Virus record (IMG/VR): IMGVR_UViG_2609460125_000009
DNA: 64,000 nucleotides
Source of the DNA: a virus
Lineage: Duplodnaviria > Heunggongvirae > Uroviricota > Caudoviricetes
Direction: 5' to 3' (one strand)
Part shown: positions 12,994-21,829 of the stretch, piece by piece
Layout: each line of letters opens with the position of its first letter
Position numbering within the stretch: position 1 is the first letter of the stretch
Notes under the pieces: generated by a model
Database searches by the model: none
Seen by the model: only the letters and a program-made list of their open reading frames with translations
Told to the model about the DNA's origin: nothing
Made by a program: the position numbers and the translations under genes

Positions 12994-15102
12994 ATGTCTA
13001 AAAAACGTTCCATCAAAGAGGTTCAGGACTTCCGTGACAGTGTAAAACGAGTAGTCGCTCTCCTTTCAGGTAAAAACATCCCTGTTGCAGAACGAGGGGA
13101 CGACGCTTATGTACGCTATAACGATGATGGAGAGCCAATTCTCGTAAACATCCCATCAATCCCGGATAACGCAACACCGGCATTGATGAATGCTGTGCGC
13201 GGATTTCTCGATCATGAGGTTGCTCACATTTTGTTTACCGATATTCGTGTGTCCAACAAAATGAGAGAAAAAGGACGCGTTCCTTCCTGGTCGCTATGGA
13301 ATGCCTTAGAAGACGTGTTCATCGAGCGAAAAATGGGTCAGGTCTTTAACGGAACAAGACGTAATCTGATGGCAACTCAGCGCCTTATAATCGAAAAAGT
13401 CTTTAAACCAAAGGCTTCAGAGGCTATTGCTTATTGTGGCAAAGATCAGCGCGCGCTTTTTCTAAACTTCTTTCTCTGTCCGGTTGTAAGAGCCTGGGAT
13501 GGCCAAGCACCGTTCGTAGATTTCATGGATGAATATTGGCCTGTCATTGAGAAACCAATTTCATTATTAAAAGAACATGGTATCGATGTGGCCGTGCGTA
13601 ACATGTCTTGCACCGAGGATTGTGTAAAGGTGGCTGCGACCATAGCTAAGATCCTCAAAGACACTGAAAGTGAAAGCAAAGGTAAGGAGTCAGCTCCGGG
13701 AAAAACTTCCGATCCTTCAGACGCTGACCAGACGGATGCCTCTGGAGAAAACAATGAAGACAACGAAGATCATGAGACACCCTCAGCGTTAGATAATCAC
13801 AAATCTATCAAATCAGAATCACACAGTAAGCACAAACATGATAATAACGACGGTGATGATTCAGATAATTCTGAATCATCAGAAACAATATTCGATGATA
13901 CAGAAAATGATAAAGAGGTATCAGATTCTGATGCTTCTGATAACGCGGTGTCAGAATCATTTACCGCTGACCACGAAAAAAGAAAAACGACAGAAGACGG
14001 CTCTTCAGATATCCCAACTCCGTCAAAAATGAGTCTGGAAGAGGCTTTAGAGGAGCTGGATAGCATAGAAGATGAAGTCGGAGGCATGACAGAAGATGCT
14101 CTATCCGAAACGATTAAAAGCGAGTTAACAGAAACCTCGAAAAGCGAATACAGGCCATACAATCGCTCATACGACTTCATCGGCTCGATTGATCAGGCAG
14201 AAGCCCATATCAAACGGCTTATTAAAACATTCTCCGATATTGATTTAGGAGGATATCCAATCAGCCGCTATCGCATCGTTCCTGAAGGCAACCAGCTCTT
14301 CGACAAATATATTGAAAAGCATCTTTCGTCAGGTGTTTCGTCGACGCTGGCAAAAGACCTGGAGCGAGCAATAGCAAGCAGAAACAGAGTTCAGTTTATA
14401 CCGGGCCAGCGTCGGGGGCGCATTCATGGTTCTAGTATCTACAGATTAGCAATGAATGATGATCGCGTGTTTCGTAAAAAAGAAGAATCTAAAGCCGTTA
14501 ACGCCTGTGTTCAGCAAGTGATTGATTTATCAGGTTCAATGAGTGGTATAACGATACAATTGGCTCTTGCAAGTGCATATACCATCGCCGATGCCCTTGA
14601 TCGAATAAATGTTCCCAACATTATCACCGGCTTCACTACATTTGGTAGTCATATGGCGGCAGGAGAACTTAAGGCTGTCAAGTATGAGTTCTCTCGCTTT
14701 GAATCTTTAATGCTACCTATCATCAAAAATTGGAATGAAAAGGTAAATTCTCGCGAAGTTCGCTCACGTATGGGGTGCGTAGGCTACACATTCCCACTTC
14801 TTAATAACGTGGATGGTGAAAGCATAGCCAGCCTTGCATCGTTATTTTCCGGTCGCATGGAGGACAGGAAGATCATGCTTGTTCTGAGTGATGGCGCGCC
14901 GTGGGCTGTTGGGAGAGGTTTTGACGCTCATTTGCGTTCGGTTGCGAAGCAAATTGAAACGCAGACTGACATTGATTTGATGGCAATTGGCATCATGACT
15001 GACGCACCGGAGAGATTATACTCAAATCATGCCCTGGTAACGAGCGTTGATAGTCTTGGTTCATCTGTAGTTACTGAACTATCTCGTATCATTTTAAAGT
15101 GA
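12994..15102 (+). CDS. VWA-domain protein, CobT-like
   Basis: C-terminal MIDAS-like DLSGSMSG, long acidic/Ser-rich central linker; paired with the downstream AAA+ ATPase. Confidence 0.65.
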   Translation: MSKKRSIKEVQDFRDSVKRVVALLSGKNIPVAERGDDAYVRYNDDGEPILVNIPSIPDNATPALMNAVRGFLDHEVAHILFTDIRVSNKMREKGRVPSWSLWNALEDVFIERKMGQVFNGTRRNLMATQRLIIEKVFKPKASEAIAYCGKDQRALFLNFFLCPVVRAWDGQAPFVDFMDEYWPVIEKPISLLKEHGIDVAVRNMSCTEDCVKVAATIAKILKDTESESKGKESAPGKTSDPSDADQTDASGENNEDNEDHETPSALDNHKSIKSESHSKHKHDNNDGDDSDNSESSETIFDDTENDKEVSDSDASDNAVSESFTADHEKRKTTEDGSSDIPTPSKMSLEEALEELDSIEDEVGGMTEDALSETIKSELTETSKSEYRPYNRSYDFIGSIDQAEAHIKRLIKTFSDIDLGGYPISRYRIVPEGNQLFDKYIEKHLSSGVSSTLAKDLERAIASRNRVQFIPGQRRGRIHGSSIYRLAMNDDRVFRKKEESKAVNACVQQVIDLSGSMSGITIQLALASAYTIADALDRINVPNIITGFTTFGSHMAAGELKAVKYEFSRFESLMLPIIKNWNEKVNSREVRSRMGCVGYTFPLLNNVDGESIASLASLFSGRMEDRKIMLVLSDGAPWAVGRGFDAHLRSVAKQIETQTDIDLMAIGIMTDAPERLYSNHALVTSVDSLGSSVVTELSRIILK

Positions 15103-15197
15103 ACAAAACAGCCTTAACGATAAGTAACCACTTACGATAGATAATGATATATTTATATAAGAAGTTGAACGCTCATTAGAAAACAAAGGAAAAACGC

Positions 15198-16433
15198 ATG
15201 ACTACTACTGCACTGCAAAATGAAAACAATCCTTCTGATTACCTTGTTTGCAAGTGGTGCGGAAAATCATTTCACTATTTTAAGTCCCATGTTGCCAATG
15301 GTAATTGCGAGGGCATTCCTGAGTCAGTAAAAGATGCCGATCCTGACACCGTACTGAAAATGTACACAACACAGTTTCCAGATGAGCCAACGCTATCGAA
15401 AAAGGCACTTGATGCAATTCAAGCTAAACGTGCCGAGCAAAAAAGCGAAATGGCCAAATCATCTGGCGTGACCAGTAGCCCAGGCTACACAGGCACAGTT
15501 GAGTACAAGACAGATCTGGTCGCAGCTCACGAACTGCTAAATGTAACGGTGAAAGAACTCGGAACAAAACGTGGGACGCCGCTCATGGTTAGCGTCAACG
15601 TCAATACGCCGTTTCCAGAGTTCGTTCCAGAAGTGAAGAAGGGATACGTATATGGCGACTTCGAACTGATCAAAGACATTTTCATGATGCTTGAACTTGG
15701 CATACCTGGCTATTTGTGGGGTCATGCAGGAACAGGCAAATCGTCATTGCCTACACAACTATGTGCTTTGCTCAATCGTCCGTTGATCCGTGCCCAACAT
15801 ACAGCATCAATGGAAGAGGCACATGTTACGGGGCAAATTCTGGCGCGTGATGGCTCTACGTATTTCGAGCCTGGCTTGCTTGCGCTCGCAATGAAGCATG
15901 GCTGGGTTTACCTCGCGGATGAATACGACTTTGCGTTTCCACAAATTCTTGGCGTGTATCAGCCAGTGCTGGAAGGTGAAGCGTTAGTCATCAAAGAGGC
16001 GACTCCAGAATGGCGTCGCATTACTCCGCATGAACGGTTTGCTTTCATTGGCACTGGCAACACGAACGGATCTGGTGATGAAACCGGCTTGTACCAGGGT
16101 ACAAACATCCAGAACGCCGCGAACTTTTCGCGTTTTGGCATCGTTTCGAATGTGAAATACATGAGCAAAGAGGCAGAGATCAACATGTTGATAAATGCCG
16201 GTATCGTGGATGAATACGCAGAAAAGATGGTTAAGTTTGCCGGTATCGTTCGCGATGGATACGAAGAACACCTTATCAGTCAGCCAATTGGCCCTCGTGA
16301 ACTTTTGTTGTCGGCCAAGATTGGAATGATGCGAGGCGACTTTGTGACAGGTATTGAGCGTTCTTTCATTAACAAACTCCCTTCAGCTTCTGCACAAGCG
16401 GCTCGTGAAGTTGTTCAAAAAATATTTGGTTGA
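15198..16433 (+). CDS. AAA+ ATPase, CobS/MoxR-like
   Basis: Walker A GHAGTGKSSL, Walker B VYLADEYD, sensor region; conserved AAAGGAAAAACGCATG start context. Confidence 0.7.
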   Translation: MTTTALQNENNPSDYLVCKWCGKSFHYFKSHVANGNCEGIPESVKDADPDTVLKMYTTQFPDEPTLSKKALDAIQAKRAEQKSEMAKSSGVTSSPGYTGTVEYKTDLVAAHELLNVTVKELGTKRGTPLMVSVNVNTPFPEFVPEVKKGYVYGDFELIKDIFMMLELGIPGYLWGHAGTGKSSLPTQLCALLNRPLIRAQHTASMEEAHVTGQILARDGSTYFEPGLLALAMKHGWVYLADEYDFAFPQILGVYQPVLEGEALVIKEATPEWRRITPHERFAFIGTGNTNGSGDETGLYQGTNIQNAANFSRFGIVSNVKYMSKEAEINMLINAGIVDEYAEKMVKFAGIVRDGYEEHLISQPIGPRELLLSAKIGMMRGDFVTGIERSFINKLPSASAQAAREVVQKIFG

Positions 16434-16613
16434 TCGTGCGTAAAGGATGTTTCGGCTCTCTTATCGCTGCTTCTGAAACTGGTAAGGCTTGTCTGGTGTG
16501 TCCAGACAAGCCCGATTGTCACCAATCAGCAAAAGAAGTTGCGATTTCGATGCATGGGAAGTTCGTAGGCTTCCCAAATGACAAAATCAAAAAAACCAGA
16601 AAGGTAAAAACAC

Positions 16614-19600
16614 ATGAAGGCACTGATGGTTCGAACTGACTTCTCACTTGGGGAGTCGGCTTTAAAAGCAGAAAACGCGGTGAAGATTGCCAGAGAAGCT
16701 GGCTACACCGCTGTAATTTCAGCAGATAGCATGAATATTGCGAGCGTTATTCCACTACAACGTGCCGCTGGTGACGACATGGCGGTTATTTGTGGTGTGA
16801 AACTAAACATCGTTGATGATCCCACATACGAGCACCGGGCTAAACTTGCTAAAGAGTCTAAGGGATGTATGGAATCATTGGAGCGAGGACGTAACTACTC
16901 GTTTACCGCTCTAATTAAAAATGAGAAAGGATATCGCGACATCTGCGAACTAATGACGGCGGCCAACACACGAGAACAGTTCTACTTTGTACCGCGTCTC
17001 TCGCTCGAACAGTTGGTTTCTACATATGCCAAAGGCAACATCATCCTGCTTACTTCCGACATCGGTAGCGTGTTCCAACGCAACGATTTTGCAAAAATCA
17101 TAAGCACACTGATTACAGCGGGTGGAAAAGACAACTTCTATAGTGTGGTTTATCCGCACCCTACCCCATTCTACGACCAGATTAACGTCCGGGCGATGAA
17201 AGTCGCCAGCGCATTGAAAATAGAGCCAGTGGCGTTCTATCCCGCTTATTACGAATCGATCGACGATGCAGACATTAAAGACATTGCGCACATGGTTACG
17301 AACAACATAAAAATCGACCAGCCGCATCGTCTGCGTATCCCCCACCAGCGAGATAACGCCATCAATGGTCGTCGCCATCTCCTTGAGGCGCTTAAAGCCT
17401 TCTCCGTTCGCATGGATGTGCCGGTAACAGCTGCAATGGCCTCAACAACGCAGGACTCCATTATCGATGCCTGCACATGGCGCTGGCATGAATTGCCACC
17501 AGCACTGCCCAAGATGGCAGACGACGAACCTGCAACGCTGATGAAACTGGCTGTTGCAGGGCTGCGTAAACGTCTTACCACAAAAGAGTTTGGATACACA
17601 CCACCTGCTTCTGAGAACAGGGTTTATGTTGAGCGGCTAAAGTACGAAATGGACACGCTGACTCGCCTGGGATTCTGTGGTTACTTCCTGATGGTACGCG
17701 ATCTGATGAATCACAGCCGTGAAACTGGCATTCCTGTCGGGCCTGGTCGTGGTTCCTCTGCCGGTTCTCTGGTGGCGTGGTGCATAGGCATAACCAACGT
17801 CGACCCAATCCGTCACGGTCTTCTGTTTGAGCGTTTCATCAACCCTGAGCGTCTCGACTTGCCGGATGCTGACTTGGACTTCAGCCAGGCACGTCGCCAT
17901 GAGGTGATCGAGTATCTGAATGAACGCTACGGCGAAGATTACGTTGCAGGCATTCCGAACTTCACCTATCTGGGCGCGGCATCTGCGCTGCGTGACACTG
18001 CACGTATTTACGGTGTCGATGCTGCGGATATGGCGGTATCCAAAGAGTTCAAGAATATGGAGGACGACAGCCTGTCTCTGGAAGAGCTGCGCGAGCAACT
18101 GGCCAGCCTGGACAAATACGCCACGAAAAACCCGGAAGCGTTCAAAGCGGCGTGTAAGCTGCAAAGCCTGATGCGTGGTTTTGGTCGTCACGCTGCGGGG
18201 ATGATCGTCGCTGGCGTTCCATTAGTAGAGCGCACGCCCGTCGAGCTGCGTGGCAATGCTCGATGTATTGCGTTCGATAAACGTTACTGCGAGGCGATGG
18301 GGCTGATTAAGTTGGACGTTCTCGGTCTGGCAACACTCGATCTTCTGGATAGCGCGAAACGCTACATCAAAGAGAGTACCGGTGAAGACATCAATCTCGA
18401 CGCTATCCCACTGGACGATCGCAAGGTTCTGGATGGGTTCGCTGCAGGGTACACGCAGGGCGTATTCCAGCTGGAGTCCGGCCCCATGCGTAAGCTGCTT
18501 AAAGATCTGGGCGGTGGCATCGAGCCAATGAGTTTCAAAACCGTTGTCGCAACTACCGCCCTCTTCCGACCGGGACCGATTCAATCCGGCATGTTGGATG
18601 ACTATGTTTCCGTTGCGAAAGGATTTATGACGCCTACATCACTACATCCTGTCTTGGATGAACTGACCTCTGAAACAAATGGAGTGATTCTCTATCAGGA
18701 ACAAACGATGAACGCAACAAGGCTTCTTGCTGGTTTCACAATGGCCGAGGCGGATGGTGTGCGTTCAGCAATCGGTAAGAAGAACATGGAAAAGATGAGG
18801 AGCATGGGTGAGAAATTTGTCATTCAGGCTCAAGCTGGGTGGATCGACGTAGAGCTTGAAAATGGCGCAATACAACGGATTCATCGCGCAGAACATTTTA
18901 AATGCGAGGACGGTACTCTGAGGACAGTTGAAGAGGCGTTGGAGCATGGAGTGAAGCTGCCAATGCCAGTTGTGCGCGTTACAACGTCACATCCAGGTCT
19001 GTCTGAGACGAAGGCAAAAGAGATATGGACTGCATTTGAGAAAAACGGAGCCTATCAGTTCAATAAATCACACTCCGTTGCTTATTCTTTAATCAGTTAT
19101 CAGTCTATGTGGCTAAAGACGCACTACCCTGCTGAGTTCTTCGCAGCTGCGCTCACCATTCTGGGCGAGGATAAGCATCAGGGGCTGGTGAAGGATGCGC
19201 TGACCTATGGCATTCGCGTATTGCCACCAGACGTTAATGTGTCATCTAACCGAATTGAGATCCGCACACTCGAAGACGGCAGTCAGGCACTGTATGCGCC
19301 ATTCTCTGCTGTGAAAGGCTGTTCTGAAAATGGTTGTCAGGCAATTATGCGTGCGCGTGAGAAAGTTGGTGGCAAATTCGAGTCAGTGGCACAATTCGAT
19401 GAAGCGGTCGAGAAGCGTGCATGTAACAGTCGTGTACGCGAGTCGCTTCATAAAGTAGGGGCTTTTGCGTCAATTGAGCCAGGCAGTCTGCCAGCAACTG
19501 ATCCTGAACGACTGCGCGACCAGGCTGAGCTGATGGGCAATCTCATCATTGACGCTGTTAAAGCATCACGTCCGTTCGAAATGAATCCTAAGCGTTCTGC

Positions 19601-20132
19601 CGAAATCAACGTACTCATGACACGTATGGCGGCTGAAATGGGCTTGGGTGAGGAGTTGATACGCCCGACTATTGGTATTAAACCCAAAATCATGATCATT
19701 CTGGACAATGCGAACGGCAATGACGCTCGTACCGGCTACTTCATGGAGAACGGATACGACGACTTTAAGGCAAAACTACTGACAGTTGGAGATCTGCGCA
19801 TGGGCGATCTTTATGTCACGGGTGTTTGTAAGAAGGTTAAGGACAAAGAGAAAGACTATACCAAAGACGAGATAGGCCAGTTCACAGACTTTATGCGGGA
19901 AGAAATTAATCTTGTACGACCAACCTACATTTTGACGTGTGGTAGTCGTTCAACCGCACTATTTAACAATAAGAGTAAACCATCAGATCTGATTGGTCGT
20001 AAGGAGTACTTCCCAGAGCTTGATGCAACCGTCTTCTACGGATTTAACCCGAATATCCTGTACTTCCGACCGGAAGAAGGAGAGCGACTGGAGGCCATTC
20101 TGGCTGATATCGCGGAGACAATAAATAAGTAA
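16614..20132 (+). CDS. DNA polymerase III alpha subunit homolog (DnaE-like) with a divergent C-terminal domain
   Basis: 1172 aa; N-terminal PHP domain, polymerase core motif GPGRGSSAGSLVAWCIGIT; conserved AAAAACACATG start context. Confidence 0.9.
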   Translation: MKALMVRTDFSLGESALKAENAVKIAREAGYTAVISADSMNIASVIPLQRAAGDDMAVICGVKLNIVDDPTYEHRAKLAKESKGCMESLERGRNYSFTALIKNEKGYRDICELMTAANTREQFYFVPRLSLEQLVSTYAKGNIILLTSDIGSVFQRNDFAKIISTLITAGGKDNFYSVVYPHPTPFYDQINVRAMKVASALKIEPVAFYPAYYESIDDADIKDIAHMVTNNIKIDQPHRLRIPHQRDNAINGRRHLLEALKAFSVRMDVPVTAAMASTTQDSIIDACTWRWHELPPALPKMADDEPATLMKLAVAGLRKRLTTKEFGYTPPASENRVYVERLKYEMDTLTRLGFCGYFLMVRDLMNHSRETGIPVGPGRGSSAGSLVAWCIGITNVDPIRHGLLFERFINPERLDLPDADLDFSQARRHEVIEYLNERYGEDYVAGIPNFTYLGAASALRDTARIYGVDAADMAVSKEFKNMEDDSLSLEELREQLASLDKYATKNPEAFKAACKLQSLMRGFGRHAAGMIVAGVPLVERTPVELRGNARCIAFDKRYCEAMGLIKLDVLGLATLDLLDSAKRYIKESTGEDINLDAIPLDDRKVLDGFAAGYTQGVFQLESGPMRKLLKDLGGGIEPMSFKTVVATTALFRPGPIQSGMLDDYVSVAKGFMTPTSLHPVLDELTSETNGVILYQEQTMNATRLLAGFTMAEADGVRSAIGKKNMEKMRSMGEKFVIQAQAGWIDVELENGAIQRIHRAEHFKCEDGTLRTVEEALEHGVKLPMPVVRVTTSHPGLSETKAKEIWTAFEKNGAYQFNKSHSVAYSLISYQSMWLKTHYPAEFFAAALTILGEDKHQGLVKDALTYGIRVLPPDVNVSSNRIEIRTLEDGSQALYAPFSAVKGCSENGCQAIMRAREKVGGKFESVAQFDEAVEKRACNSRVRESLHKVGAFASIEPGSLPATDPERLRDQAELMGNLIIDAVKASRPFEMNPKRSAEINVLMTRMAAEMGLGEELIRPTIGIKPKIMIILDNANGNDARTGYFMENGYDDFKAKLLTVGDLRMGDLYVTGVCKKVKDKEKDYTKDEIGQFTDFMREEINLVRPTYILTCGSRSTALFNNKSKPSDLIGRKEYFPELDATVFYGFNPNILYFRPEEGERLEAILADIAETINK

Positions 20133-20435: not shown

Positions 20436-20651
20436 TCAGCTTAGAGCAACGACATTTGCTGCTGCTGGGCCTTTAGCCCCATTCTCGATAGAGAATTCGA
20501 CCTGCTGGCCTTCTTCCAAAGTGCGGAAATTATTACTCTGAATTGCCGAAAAATGTACAAAAACATCTTTACTGCCATCAGCAGGAGAAATAAAGCCAAA
20601 GCCTTTATCAGAGTTAAACCATTTTACTAAACCAGTCATTTTATTAGACAT
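20436..20651 (-). CDS. cold-shock protein, CspA family
   Basis: [21 protein letters not shown] ... VFVHFSAI with RNP1/RNP2-like motifs; start moved to the internal Met matching the CspA N-terminus; ~300-nt leader upstream. Confidence 0.85.
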
Positions 20652-20980
20652 AGATATTACCTTCTTAATTTTGTGAGCCACATAGTGCGGCGAGAATTTG
20701 ATCTGTATAGATTGGGACTTACTTAGGCACTTAAGGAGGAGACTCACGAAGAAGGGAAATCAGAAGATAACACTGAACTGAGACTGCTTTACTAAAACTG
20801 CTTACATAAGGTCTGTCTTGCAAACCAACGATGCTATTAACGCATACCCCTTCTTTTCATGCAACCTTTATTTTTCAAAGATAACTAATTTTTGTCACCA
20901 TTGGTTTAGTAAACGTTAACGAACCAGACGATGCCAGACACCTTTACAGAGAACAGATGCCCGCCAATTGGCGGGCATCA

Positions 20981-21544
20981 TTATGCGCATTTCGCAATAT
21001 CTTTGCGGCGTTTAATCAGTTTCTCCGCAATTTGCTCTATTTCGTTGAAATCTTTCGAGACGCTGTTTCGAAGCGCCAGATTCCATTTACTCAAAGTTCG
21101 GGCATTTTGGACAATTTGATCGCCCTCTTTAAGTCGTCCGTTATTCATGAGCCATTCAGCCACATCAGCCCAATCCCAGAGAGGAGACTGGCCTTTTATG
21201 CGTTGTACAGGGCAAGGGAAGTCGCCGCTTCCGCGCTTACCGTCTTTGAGCAACGCCACTGCCTGGCGAGACAGGTCTGTCAGTTCCGCGATATCGCTTA
21301 AGCCCACAAGAGCCGAGTCGACGGATTCAACAATTGCACCGATACCGGCTGATTCAATATTGTCGACCGCAGATGCGATAGCTGCATCAAGTGATTGTGC
21401 TTCGCGGTCAAATTCTACATAGACGGAGTTTCCATATGCGCAAATTAGCGCATCGTCACAGCCGTTTTGGTACAGCGCGTCTTCCAGTCCTTCCGTCTCA
21501 TACGATACGCCTGAGAGCGTCAGAGTGAAGTTATAAAGCGCCAT
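20981..21544 (-). CDS. hypothetical protein (187 aa), possible DNA-binding protein
   Basis: ORF with internal start MALYNF; terminator hairpin just downstream (20958-20980). Confidence 0.5.
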   Translation of the reverse strand: MALYNFTLTLSGVSYETEGLEDALYQNGCDDALICAYGNSVYVEFDREAQSLDAAIASAVDNIESAGIGAIVESVDSALVGLSDIAELTDLSRQAVALLKDGKRGSGDFPCPVQRIKGQSPLWDWADVAEWLMNNGRLKEGDQIVQNARTLSKWNLALRNSVSKDFNEIEQIAEKLIKRRKDIAKCA

Positions 21545-21604
21545 AGTTTTCCTTTGAAGATAGTTGGACAGTTTCTGCAAAAGGCGGCTAATGCCGCCTT
21601 GAAA

Positions 21605-21829
21605 TCATTTACAACGATCAACCATTCGTTTGATCTGTTTGGCATGGTTTTCGGGATTACCCGGAGTCGACCATACGCTCATTTGGTGAGTTTTGTGTTC
21701 ACCTTCTGGATTACCGCATCGCAGTCTGCAAAAACAATGTGCAGCACCACCAGCAGCTACCCAGATCCAGCCTTTACTTAATGCATAGTCAATGGCTGCT
21801 TGAATATGCTTATTCGGATGTTGCTTCAT
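21605..21829 (-). CDS. hypothetical Cys/His-rich small protein (74 aa)
   Basis: ORF in operon with the 20981-21544 gene; HCFCRLRCGNPEGEHKTH cluster suggests metal binding. Confidence 0.45.
   Translation of the reverse strand: MKQHPNKHIQAAIDYALSKGWIWVAAGGAAHCFCRLRCGNPEGEHKTHQMSVWSTPGNPENHAKQIKRMVDRCK

Follow-up and report, generated by a model that had tools for sequence, protein, structure and literature searches.

Uracil-DNA glycosylase (UDG) folds are found in viral replicases built on different polymerase families. The UDG-like domains of the SPO1 and T5 A-family polymerases (PolA) have been proposed to be intrinsic processivity factors, and the vaccinia processivity factor is the D4-A20 complex (PMC3201878); the poxvirus UDG adds to processivity by its binding of DNA (as cited in PMC3201878 and PMC4889955). 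In SP15-like PolA an active UDG sits on the template ahead of the fork and reads deoxyuridine, as in the mpox holoenzyme (bioRxiv 10.1101/2025.03.26.645540). For C-family polymerases the closest description is that of Timinskas et al. 2014 (NAR 42:1393, PMC3919608), who reported Yersinia pestis and Salmonella enterica plasmid polymerases with a PHP-Pol3-(HhH)2 layout in which the OB and C-terminal domains are replaced by an archaeal-type UDG (PF03167). Here we analyze the C-terminal tail of a DnaE-like polymerase encoded by an SSU5-type phage-plasmid within a stretch of 64,000 nucleotides (IMG/VR record IMGVR_UViG_2609460125_000009; the whole stretch is called the window below). This polymerase is of the same lineage as those of Timinskas 2014 and shows no architectural difference from them, and the DnaE-UDG architecture is already known both in the literature and in Pfam annotations. 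The 2014 treatment consisted of one sentence and a figure panel and is silent on the lost catalytic and iron-sulfur (Fe-S) residues, the phage spread, the linker motif and function. Of two earlier virus-replicase surveys by Kazlauskas and Venclovas, one records phage C-family polymerases with an unidentified C-terminal region only (PMC3201878) and the other does not mention the domain (PMC4889955); it also goes unmentioned in a 2026 bacterial-polymerase survey, and literature searches on phage DnaE-UDG fusions, SSU5 DNA polymerase III (Pol III) and a Pol III alpha C-terminal UDG returned nothing relevant. What is added here is how far the domain extends, its systematic loss of catalytic, uracil-reading and Fe-S residues, the strong constraint acting on it, the breadth of the family that carries it, and a conserved linker that resembles a clamp-binding motif.

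The gene and the domain occupy the following positions.

16614..20132, plus strand: dnaE-like gene of 1172 codons and a TAA stop, for the C-family replicative polymerase of an SSU5-type phage-plasmid (from the list of open reading frames, ORFs)
19551..20129, plus strand: UDG-fold domain derived from family-4 UDGs, residues 980-1172 (AlphaFold2, Foldseek, profiles, TIGR00758, and the ratio of non-synonymous to synonymous substitution rates, dN/dS)

Structure prediction and profile comparison show that residues 980-1172 make up a complete alpha/beta domain of the UDG superfamily, with its origin in the family-4 ('archaeal/thermophilic') type. A profile built from 50 diverse homologous tails (alignment A1) was used both for AlphaFold2 and to search the PDB sequences. 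The resulting model of residues 980-1172 has a mean predicted local distance difference test score of 96 and a predicted template modelling (TM) score of 0.92, and contains the four-stranded parallel beta-sheet of the alpha/beta fold common to UDG families 1-6, as judged from the model and from Foldseek. Against the PDB, Foldseek gave E=7.6e-12, with the Sulfolobus tokodaii enzyme 4zbx superimposing over the whole chain (TM 0.80/0.81 over 192 columns) and other family-4 UDGs close behind (1l9g, TM 0.77; 1ui0, TM 0.76); matches were ordered as family-4 UDGs, then UdgX, family 5 and TDG/MUG. Profile searches ranked the families in a similar way, with E=1.6e-20 for 4zbx, 2.1e-20 for 1vk2, 4.6e-16 for 1ui0 and ~5e-14 for UdgX, and only 0.35 for family 5. 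Families 5, 2 and 1 were rejected as the nearest relatives, since their scores are many orders of magnitude poorer than those of family 4 and UdgX. In a library of viral structures (BFVD) the top matches were phage UDGs that stand alone, together with UDG-like domains from many phage polymerases of the A family, among them the SP-15 and T5-like enzymes.

Matches to the tail sequence by itself are weaker and help to define the relationship. The tail alone matches the NCBIfam model of UDG family 4, TIGR00758, at E=1.8e-8 and 34.3 bits against a curated cut-off of 125.3, and the archaeal type-4 UDG model Arch_udg at E=1.7e-6 and 27.6 bits against a cut-off of 250. Because the homology is significant yet falls below the curated TIGR00758 threshold, the tail is, on these scores, a divergent relative of the family-4 UDGs and not an equivalog. 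The Pfam UDG model gives a marginal match to the window sequence (E=0.014), which taken alone would make a weak claim; the assignment is settled instead by NCBIfam, the family profile and the structure. In a single-sequence search of the PDB sequences four of the five matches were family-4 UDGs, all of them weak (4zbx, E=0.009; 1l9g, 1vk2 and 1ui0, E=0.2-1.5). Word-indexed homolog searches, with the tail alone or with the 50-sequence profile, retrieved short fragments and a few free-standing UDGs only and were uninformative about architecture, which was read instead from an exhaustive search of cluster representatives and from a query with the full-length protein.

The boundary of the polymerase proper was placed by domain search and by alignment. 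A Pfam scan of the DnaE protein finds PHP, pol3_alpha, finger and HHH_6 domains up to residue 955 and nothing canonical beyond, and E. coli Pol III alpha (5fku) can be aligned as far as residue 959, the counterpart of E. coli residue 896. DnaE homology therefore ends at about residue 959-979, with residues 960-979 forming a linker. The OB fold and tau-binding domain of the DnaE1 type were not found after (HhH)2, and there is no room for them, because the UDG fold takes up everything beyond the linker; the reading as an OB fold or another standard DnaE tail was accordingly rejected. The UDG-like domain, a single domain of ~193 residues, is fused immediately behind (HhH)2, in the position that the OB fold and tau-binding domain occupy in cellular DnaE.

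The original prediction, made from the letters of the window and its ORF translations, had quoted four peptides from the end of this protein, and all four read in the +1 frame: MIILDNANG from residue 1027 (nt 19692), LYVTGVCKK from 1066, LVRPTYILTCGS from 1100 and FYGFNPNIL from 1141. It held that the tail is unlike the usual DnaE OB/tau-binding region, as the domain boundaries above bear out, and that it loosely recalls family-4 UDGs, a resemblance that proves to be far above chance. Structure prediction, which it had proposed as a check, returned a complete UDG alpha/beta fold with no OB or standard tail, and the top matches were exclusively family-4 UDGs and UdgX. Its extent needs correction: the domain was put at ~150 residues and in fact begins ~45 residues further toward the N-terminus. 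The part missed is the N-terminal helix, which in true family-4 enzymes bears the CxxC pair. The start position given, 19690, lies two bases off the reading frame of the M1027 codon.

Residues of the window protein were mapped to Thermus thermophilus UDGa by alignment with hidden Markov models (HMMs) and by reference to the mutational study of Xia et al. 2017 (PMC5387724), and conservation at each position was counted over 114 aligned family members. The segments that carry the former active site are as follows.

19701..19724, plus strand: motif A remnant L-D1031-N-A-N-G-N-D1037, against G-E41-G/A-P-G-x-x-E47 (HMM alignment to 4zbx)
19812..19835, plus strand: Y1067-V-T1069-G1070-V-C-K1073-K, against Y-x-T-N80-x-x-K-C (HMM alignment to 4zbx)
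19938..19952, plus strand: C-G1110-S1111-R-S, retained equivalent of the UDG Gly-Ser phosphate-binding loop (conservation)
20040..20054, plus strand: motif B remnant G-F-N1145-P-N, against x-x-H155-P-S, with the catalytic His lost (HMM alignment)

Individual UDGa residues correspond to the window protein in this way.

E41 of UDGa: D1031
G42 of UDGa: N1032
E47 of UDGa: D1037
F54 of UDGa, the stacking Phe: M1044
N80 of UDGa, the uracil-specific Asn: G1070
N89 of UDGa: E1079
H155 of UDGa, the catalytic His: N1145

Motif A, GEAPG in the enzymes, reads L-D-N-A-N (1030-1034) in the window and x-D-x-P-(N/S/T) in the family consensus, with D1031 kept in 101/114 members and Glu or Asp at 1037 in 107/114. 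The position of the uracil-reading Asn (1070) is Gly, Ser, Ala or Thr (32, 29, 27 and 20 members) and never Asn, although the residues around it are held almost without exception (Y1067 in 111/114, T1069 in 113/114 and K1073 in 107/114). The Fe-S Cys that closes this segment is replaced by Lys, and a Lys-rich loop then takes the place of the Pro-rich loop with which UDGs compress DNA. Position 1145, where the catalytic His should be, is Asn in 70 members, Ser in 27 and Thr in 12, and never His, while the following P1146 is kept in 111/114. The Gly-Ser loop is retained, with G1110 in 108/114 and Ser or Thr at 1111 in 76/114; from what is generally known of UDG-DNA complexes, we take this loop to bind phosphate.

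Of the Cys ligands of the [4Fe-4S] cluster (the N-terminal CxxC, the Cys of K-C-RPP and a Cys ~16 residues later), 0/4 are present in the window protein; its C1072 is out of register with these ligands and is not conserved. About half of the distant DnaE-fused members keep the CxxC and the last Fe-S Cys. In P0139, P0149, P0150 and P0152, for example, the CxxC is followed by a His ~7-9 residues on and by a Cys at alignment column 1090, a Cys present in 47/114 members. The CxxC...His...Cys arrangement outside the SSU5 clade is probably a surviving Fe-S or metal site. The members that keep the CxxC have also already lost the catalytic His and the uracil-reading Asn. Given this retention of CxxC...H and the final Fe-S Cys by about half of the distant members, the SSU5 clade is, by sequence comparison, the most reduced form of a domain that began as a normal family-4 enzyme. 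The original prediction had called the fold possibly degenerate, and this is correct because motif A, motif B, the uracil-reading Asn and the Fe-S positions are all substituted.

The cost of such substitutions is known for T. thermophilus UDGa, in which k2/Km falls ~2500-fold in H155S, ~900-fold in E41Q, ~40-fold in N80A and ~17-fold in F54A (PMC5387724). Given these losses and the substitution of the catalytic and uracil-reading positions, canonical uracil excision by the tail is very unlikely. It could nonetheless still be an enzyme, that is, a non-canonical glycosylase or a binder of apurinic/apyrimidinic (AP) sites or damaged bases acting through Asp1031, Asp1037 and Asn1145 and scanning the template in front of the polymerase, in the manner of the active UDG of the SP15-like A-family polymerases. 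There is precedent for an active UDG fused to a phage replicase (bioRxiv 10.1101/2025.03.26.645540), MUG/TDG-type enzymes work without the motif-B His, and UDG families 2 and 6 are active although they lack it (PMC5387724). The high retention of the acidic positions 1031 and 1037, the Asn, Ser or Thr kept at the His position and the very strong purifying selection documented below would fit such an activity. On the other hand, the uracil reader, the stacking Phe and the main catalytic His are replaced in every member, the equivalent single mutants of a family-4 enzyme lose 17- to 2500-fold, the Fe-S ligands are gone in the SSU5 clade, and the TIGR00758 score, 34 against 125 bits, is far under the family cut-off. 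Weighing these points, we consider a surviving enzymatic role quite unlikely.

The fusion is widespread, occurring in at least 132 sequence clusters and always at the C-terminus of DnaE. When 1.84 billion cluster representatives were searched exhaustively with the tail by HMMER, 132 clusters matched at E<=1e-3, of which 47 reached E<=1e-10, and in almost all of the 132 the match ends within ~20 residues of the C-terminus. All of the homologs sampled (16/16) are DnaE with a C-terminal Pfam UDG (PF03167), whether complete, intein-containing, split or fragmentary; many of these Pfam matches exceed the gathering score, reaching up to 48.5 bits, and PF03167 is already among the precomputed assignments of nearer full-length relatives (52-61% identity). 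Carriers of the fusion include Pseudomonas nickie-like and Rhizobium RHEph10-like phages. By homology the window protein is a member of this large DnaE-UDG fusion family, the 'DnaEX' of Timinskas 2014. The original prediction had described an unusual accessory domain on a replicative polymerase: the UDG-like domain is real, but it was reported before (PMC3919608) and is common among phage DnaEs, so that it is not newly unusual.

Several forms of the gene are interrupted. In many Klebsiella SSU5-like elements, such as L005 (4001-8253), dnaE is split by a free-standing HNH homing endonuclease of 233 aa (NUMOD4 and HNH_3). The products are a 787-aa PHP-pol-fingers protein, whose cluster holds 1105 sequences, and a 389-aa protein consisting of (HhH)2 and the UDG-like domain. 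The gene is broken where the window protein has an insert of ~55 residues (~742-799) and where distant homologs have their intein sites; the family members P0164 and P0254 have inteins at this site. In the E. coli relatives P0108, P0112 and P0129 the N-terminal two-thirds of DnaE is joined to a Pfam RecA region and the (HhH)2 and UDG-like parts are absent. These joins may be deletion fusions or assembly artefacts, because recA sits ~5 kb downstream of dnaE in the Escherichia phage Cyrano.

The pattern of substitution points to a domain in use. Between the window and SSU5 the UDG-like domain shows 96 synonymous and 18 non-synonymous differences, and between SSU5 and a Klebsiella phage 75 and 9 (dN/dS 0.018). 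Its dN/dS of 0.014-0.018 is equal to or lower than the 0.02-0.04 of the polymerase core. On this comparison the domain is under strong purifying selection and is functional, not decaying. Conservation also runs deep, with near-invariant residues at D1031, Y1067, T1069, K1073, K1076, E1097, P1103, G1110, K1120, G1128, Y1132, D1137, G1143 and P1146 among sequences that share ~25% identity. These data bear on the idea that the tail is an evolutionary leftover, a once-active UDG that is now an appendage for folding or stability without a specific role. The loss of catalytic and Fe-S residues, with the SSU5 clade the most stripped-down of its family, is what such a history would produce. A dN/dS as low as that of the polymerase core, ~15 near-invariant positions at ~25% identity, and retention at the C-terminus in 132 clusters, even where the gene is split, all argue the other way, and we regard a leftover as highly improbable. 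A vestigial domain was rejected on dN/dS and deep conservation.

The conserved positions are not scattered evenly with respect to the fold. Many of the near-invariant residues (D1031, Y1067, T1069, K1073, K1076, G1110, K1120, G1128 and P1146) lie on what we take, from general knowledge of UDG structures, to be the DNA-contact loops of UDGs: those of motif A and motif B, the Gly-Ser loop and the one that follows strand 2. The loops equivalent to DNA contacts are also locally basic, with a mean net charge of +2.5 (loop 1072-1082) and +1.5. A second conserved element lies just outside the domain.

19521..19535, plus strand: QAELM, residues 970-974, candidate sliding-clamp-binding motif (conservation; likeness to E. 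coli alpha)

The linker (residues 960-979, nt 19491-19550) has the consensus R966...Q970-x-E-L-[ML]-[PG]-G-L in 89 family members and reads DQAELMGNL in the window; R966 is conserved in 84/89, Q970 in 77/89 and L973 in 68/89. The internal clamp-binding motif of E. coli alpha is 920-QADMF-924 (as cited in PMC3201878), and QAELM is like it both in sequence and in its equivalent place after (HhH)2, 6-10 residues upstream of the UDG-like domain. The resemblance suggests that QAELM is a putative clamp-binding motif and that the enzyme may use the host beta clamp. Cyrano is annotated with a DnaB-like helicase, primase, ligase, gp32-like single-stranded DNA-binding protein (SSB), epsilon-like proofreading exonuclease and RNase H, and also with ThyX, a MazG-like nucleoside triphosphate pyrophosphohydrolase, DHFR, ribonucleotide reductase, methionyl-tRNA synthetase and three tRNAs; over the 26.7-108 kb of its record that the analysis covered, there is no annotation of a clamp, clamp loader, dUTPase or separate UDG. 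The phage DnaE probably borrows the host clamp and probably cannot be coupled through tau.

The near-invariant residues on the DNA-contact loops, the basic character of those loops, the adjacent linker with its clamp-like motif and the lack of an annotated clamp, clamp loader or separate UDG in the covered part of Cyrano are the reasons for proposing a DNA-facing role. We suggest that the tail is a catalytically dead accessory module that holds DNA beside the clamp through its retained DNA-contact loops, a function to which sequence conservation and predicted structure give, in our estimate, about an even chance. In this model the domain would be a non-catalytic part of the phage replisome, unable to act as a uracil glycosylase. 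QAELM would attach the polymerase to the clamp, and the retained DNA-contact face of the UDG fold would hold DNA next to the clamp; this face is made up of the loops of motif A and motif B, the Gly-Ser loop and the Lys-rich loop that stands where UDGs have the Pro-rich one. The domain would in this way take over the DNA-handling and stabilizing role of the missing OB/C-terminal tail and keep the polymerase stabilized on its substrate, in parallel with UDG-fold modules on viral A-family (SPO1, T5, SP-15-like) and B-family (poxvirus D4/E4) polymerases.

Several observations weigh against this proposal. The domain as a whole is slightly acidic, with a net charge of -3 and an isoelectric point of 5.3 in the window and a family mean of -1, whereas two genuine family-4 UDGs from the same search carry +8 and +19. 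The acidic net charge makes a simple DNA-binding model less convincing and would be in keeping with binding to protein. Acidic residues are kept at the E41 (Asp) and E47 (Asp/Glu) positions, and some chemistry of the old pocket is possible. The case for clamp binding is one of motif resemblance, and when residues 925-985 were aligned toward E. coli alpha the matches were chance ones only (TPR proteins, caspase).

The charge leads to the idea of a protein-protein adaptor, in which the UDG fold would serve as a docking module in place of the tau-binding domain and contact a DnaB-like helicase, primase, gp32-like SSB, epsilon-like exonuclease or the host clamp, rather than DNA. The domain occupies the chain position of the missing tau-binding tail (PMC3919608) and, unlike true UDGs, is net acidic; the phage has its own helicase, primase, SSB and epsilon-like exonuclease, yet no tau or clamp loader; the 389-aa Klebsiella polypeptide must reassociate with the rest of the enzyme; and poxvirus D4 acts via a protein bridge, A20 (PMC3201878). 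However, conservation clusters on the former active-site and DNA-contact loops and not on another face, and those loops are still basic. An adaptor that works without DNA is plausible but, in our judgment, unlikely. The preferred reading remains the dead module that would hold DNA beside the clamp.

The rest of the gene consists of the following parts.

16629..17141, plus strand: PHP domain, residues 6-176 (Pfam PF02811, E=5.7e-13)
17538..18833, plus strand: polymerase core and fingers, residues 309-740 (Pfam PF07733, E=3.6e-73; PF17657, E=1.8e-43)
18837..19010, plus strand: variable insert between fingers and (HhH)2, ~residues 742-799 (sequence comparison)
19209..19478, plus strand: (HhH)2/beta-binding domain, residues 866-955, the final part homologous to cellular DnaE (Pfam PF14579, E=3e-16)

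Pfam divides the second of these into the Pol III alpha catalytic domain (309-571) and the fingers (574-740). The core contains PDADLDF at residues 417-423 and KLDVLGL at 566-572, which we take from general knowledge of Pol III alpha to be the conserved catalytic-aspartate motifs of C-family polymerases. The NCBIfam models PRK05673/TIGR00594 match residues 4-746 at E<=1e-187; the NCBIfam DnaE models align to about residue 750 only, and one fragment model reaches 956. With PHP, Pol3 core, fingers and (HhH)2 all present, the window protein is, by its domain matches, a DnaE-type C-family polymerase. The variable insert is missing in the relatives P0118 and P0119. Compared with Cyrano, residues 746-865 (18849-19208) share only 63% protein identity, with dN/dS 0.47, while the 307 residues that follow (866-1172) are 100% identical and the first 300 residues of the protein 99% identical. 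From this comparison the polymerase gene is a sharp recombination mosaic in residues 746-865.

The dnaE gene is 100% identical to that of the E. coli plasmid CP057127.1, 95% identical to that of Escherichia phage Cyrano and 87% identical to that of Salmonella phage SSU5, and is carried by 781 plasmid records, mostly non-mobilizable and ~100-110 kb, from Klebsiella, Escherichia, Enterobacter, Yersinia (63 records) and Salmonella (49 records). On the strength of these gene identities and the distribution of plasmid records, the window is assigned to an E. coli SSU5-type phage-plasmid. Such elements are very common in Enterobacteriaceae, including Yersinia pestis and Salmonella Typhi plasmids, and bring their own replicative polymerase.

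Directly upstream of dnaE (12994-16433) lie genes for a CobT-like VWA protein (702 aa) and an AAA_5 ATPase (411 aa), a synteny kept in the SSU5, Cyrano and Klebsiella loci. Records label this pair as porphyrin or cobalamin biosynthesis proteins, a role that is unlikely in a phage replication module. A Cys-rich ORF of 69 codons (16430-16639, with CLVCPDKPDC) runs into the 5' end of dnaE. Its conserved counterparts are SSU5_051 and, in L005, a gene of 67 aa, and no Pfam match is on record for it. Downstream of dnaE, at 20436-21829 on the minus strand, are a cold-shock-domain gene and a gene pair (20981-21580 and 21605-21829) that matches in position and size the HicB/HicA antitoxin-toxin pair annotated in Cyrano.

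Comparison with cellular DnaE brings out what has to be explained. In E. coli Pol III alpha the OB and tau-binding module (~960-1160) has the same chain position as the UDG-like tail, after (HhH)2 and the internal clamp-binding motif, but the two folds are unrelated, and tau coupling has no obvious counterpart here, where the element encodes no tau or clamp loader. Because this polymerase lacks the OB/tau-binding tail by which cellular Pol III alpha is linked to the replisome, its mechanism is in question, and the UDG-fold tail is the obvious candidate for how the enzyme works. Free-standing family-4 UDGs (T. thermophilus UDGa, 1ui0; T. maritima, 1l9g; S. tokodaii, 4zbx) and UdgX share with it the whole-chain fold and motif order, including the Y-x-T...K segment, the Gly-Ser loop and the motif-B Pro. 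The family-4 enzymes are strongly basic and act free of a polymerase, whereas the window domain is acidic and polymerase-fused.

The viral replicases offer the nearest functional parallels. A-family phage polymerases (SPO1, T5-like, SP-15/YerA41/phiLo) likewise have a UDG-fold module covalently attached to a replicative polymerase, although there it is N-terminal on PolA, and here it is C-terminal on a C-family polymerase unrelated in fold. The UDG of the SP15-like enzymes is active, whereas the window domain is without the catalytic His and Asn. The poxvirus holoenzyme (E9/F8-A20/A22-D4/E4) likewise includes a UDG fold, but D4/E4 is a separate subunit, bridged by A20 to a B-family polymerase, and is family-1-like and still catalytically active. 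By analogy, the tail may be the C-family counterpart of the A-family (SP15, SPO1, T5) and poxvirus UDG modules, placed on DNA beside the clamp or at the template entry, an equivalence that we find possible though rather doubtful. In a bolder version, the remodelled pocket (Asp1031, Asp1037 and Asn1145) may still sense or process a template lesion. If the equivalence is true, unrelated polymerase families would have independently recruited the UDG fold as a DNA-tracking or processivity device, with catalysis given up in the present case. The question is topical, as structures of A-family phage polymerases and of the mpox B-family holoenzyme now show UDG modules located on the template. Set beside those systems, a disabled but highly conserved C-family example would show whether the fold is recruited for DNA handling and not for repair.

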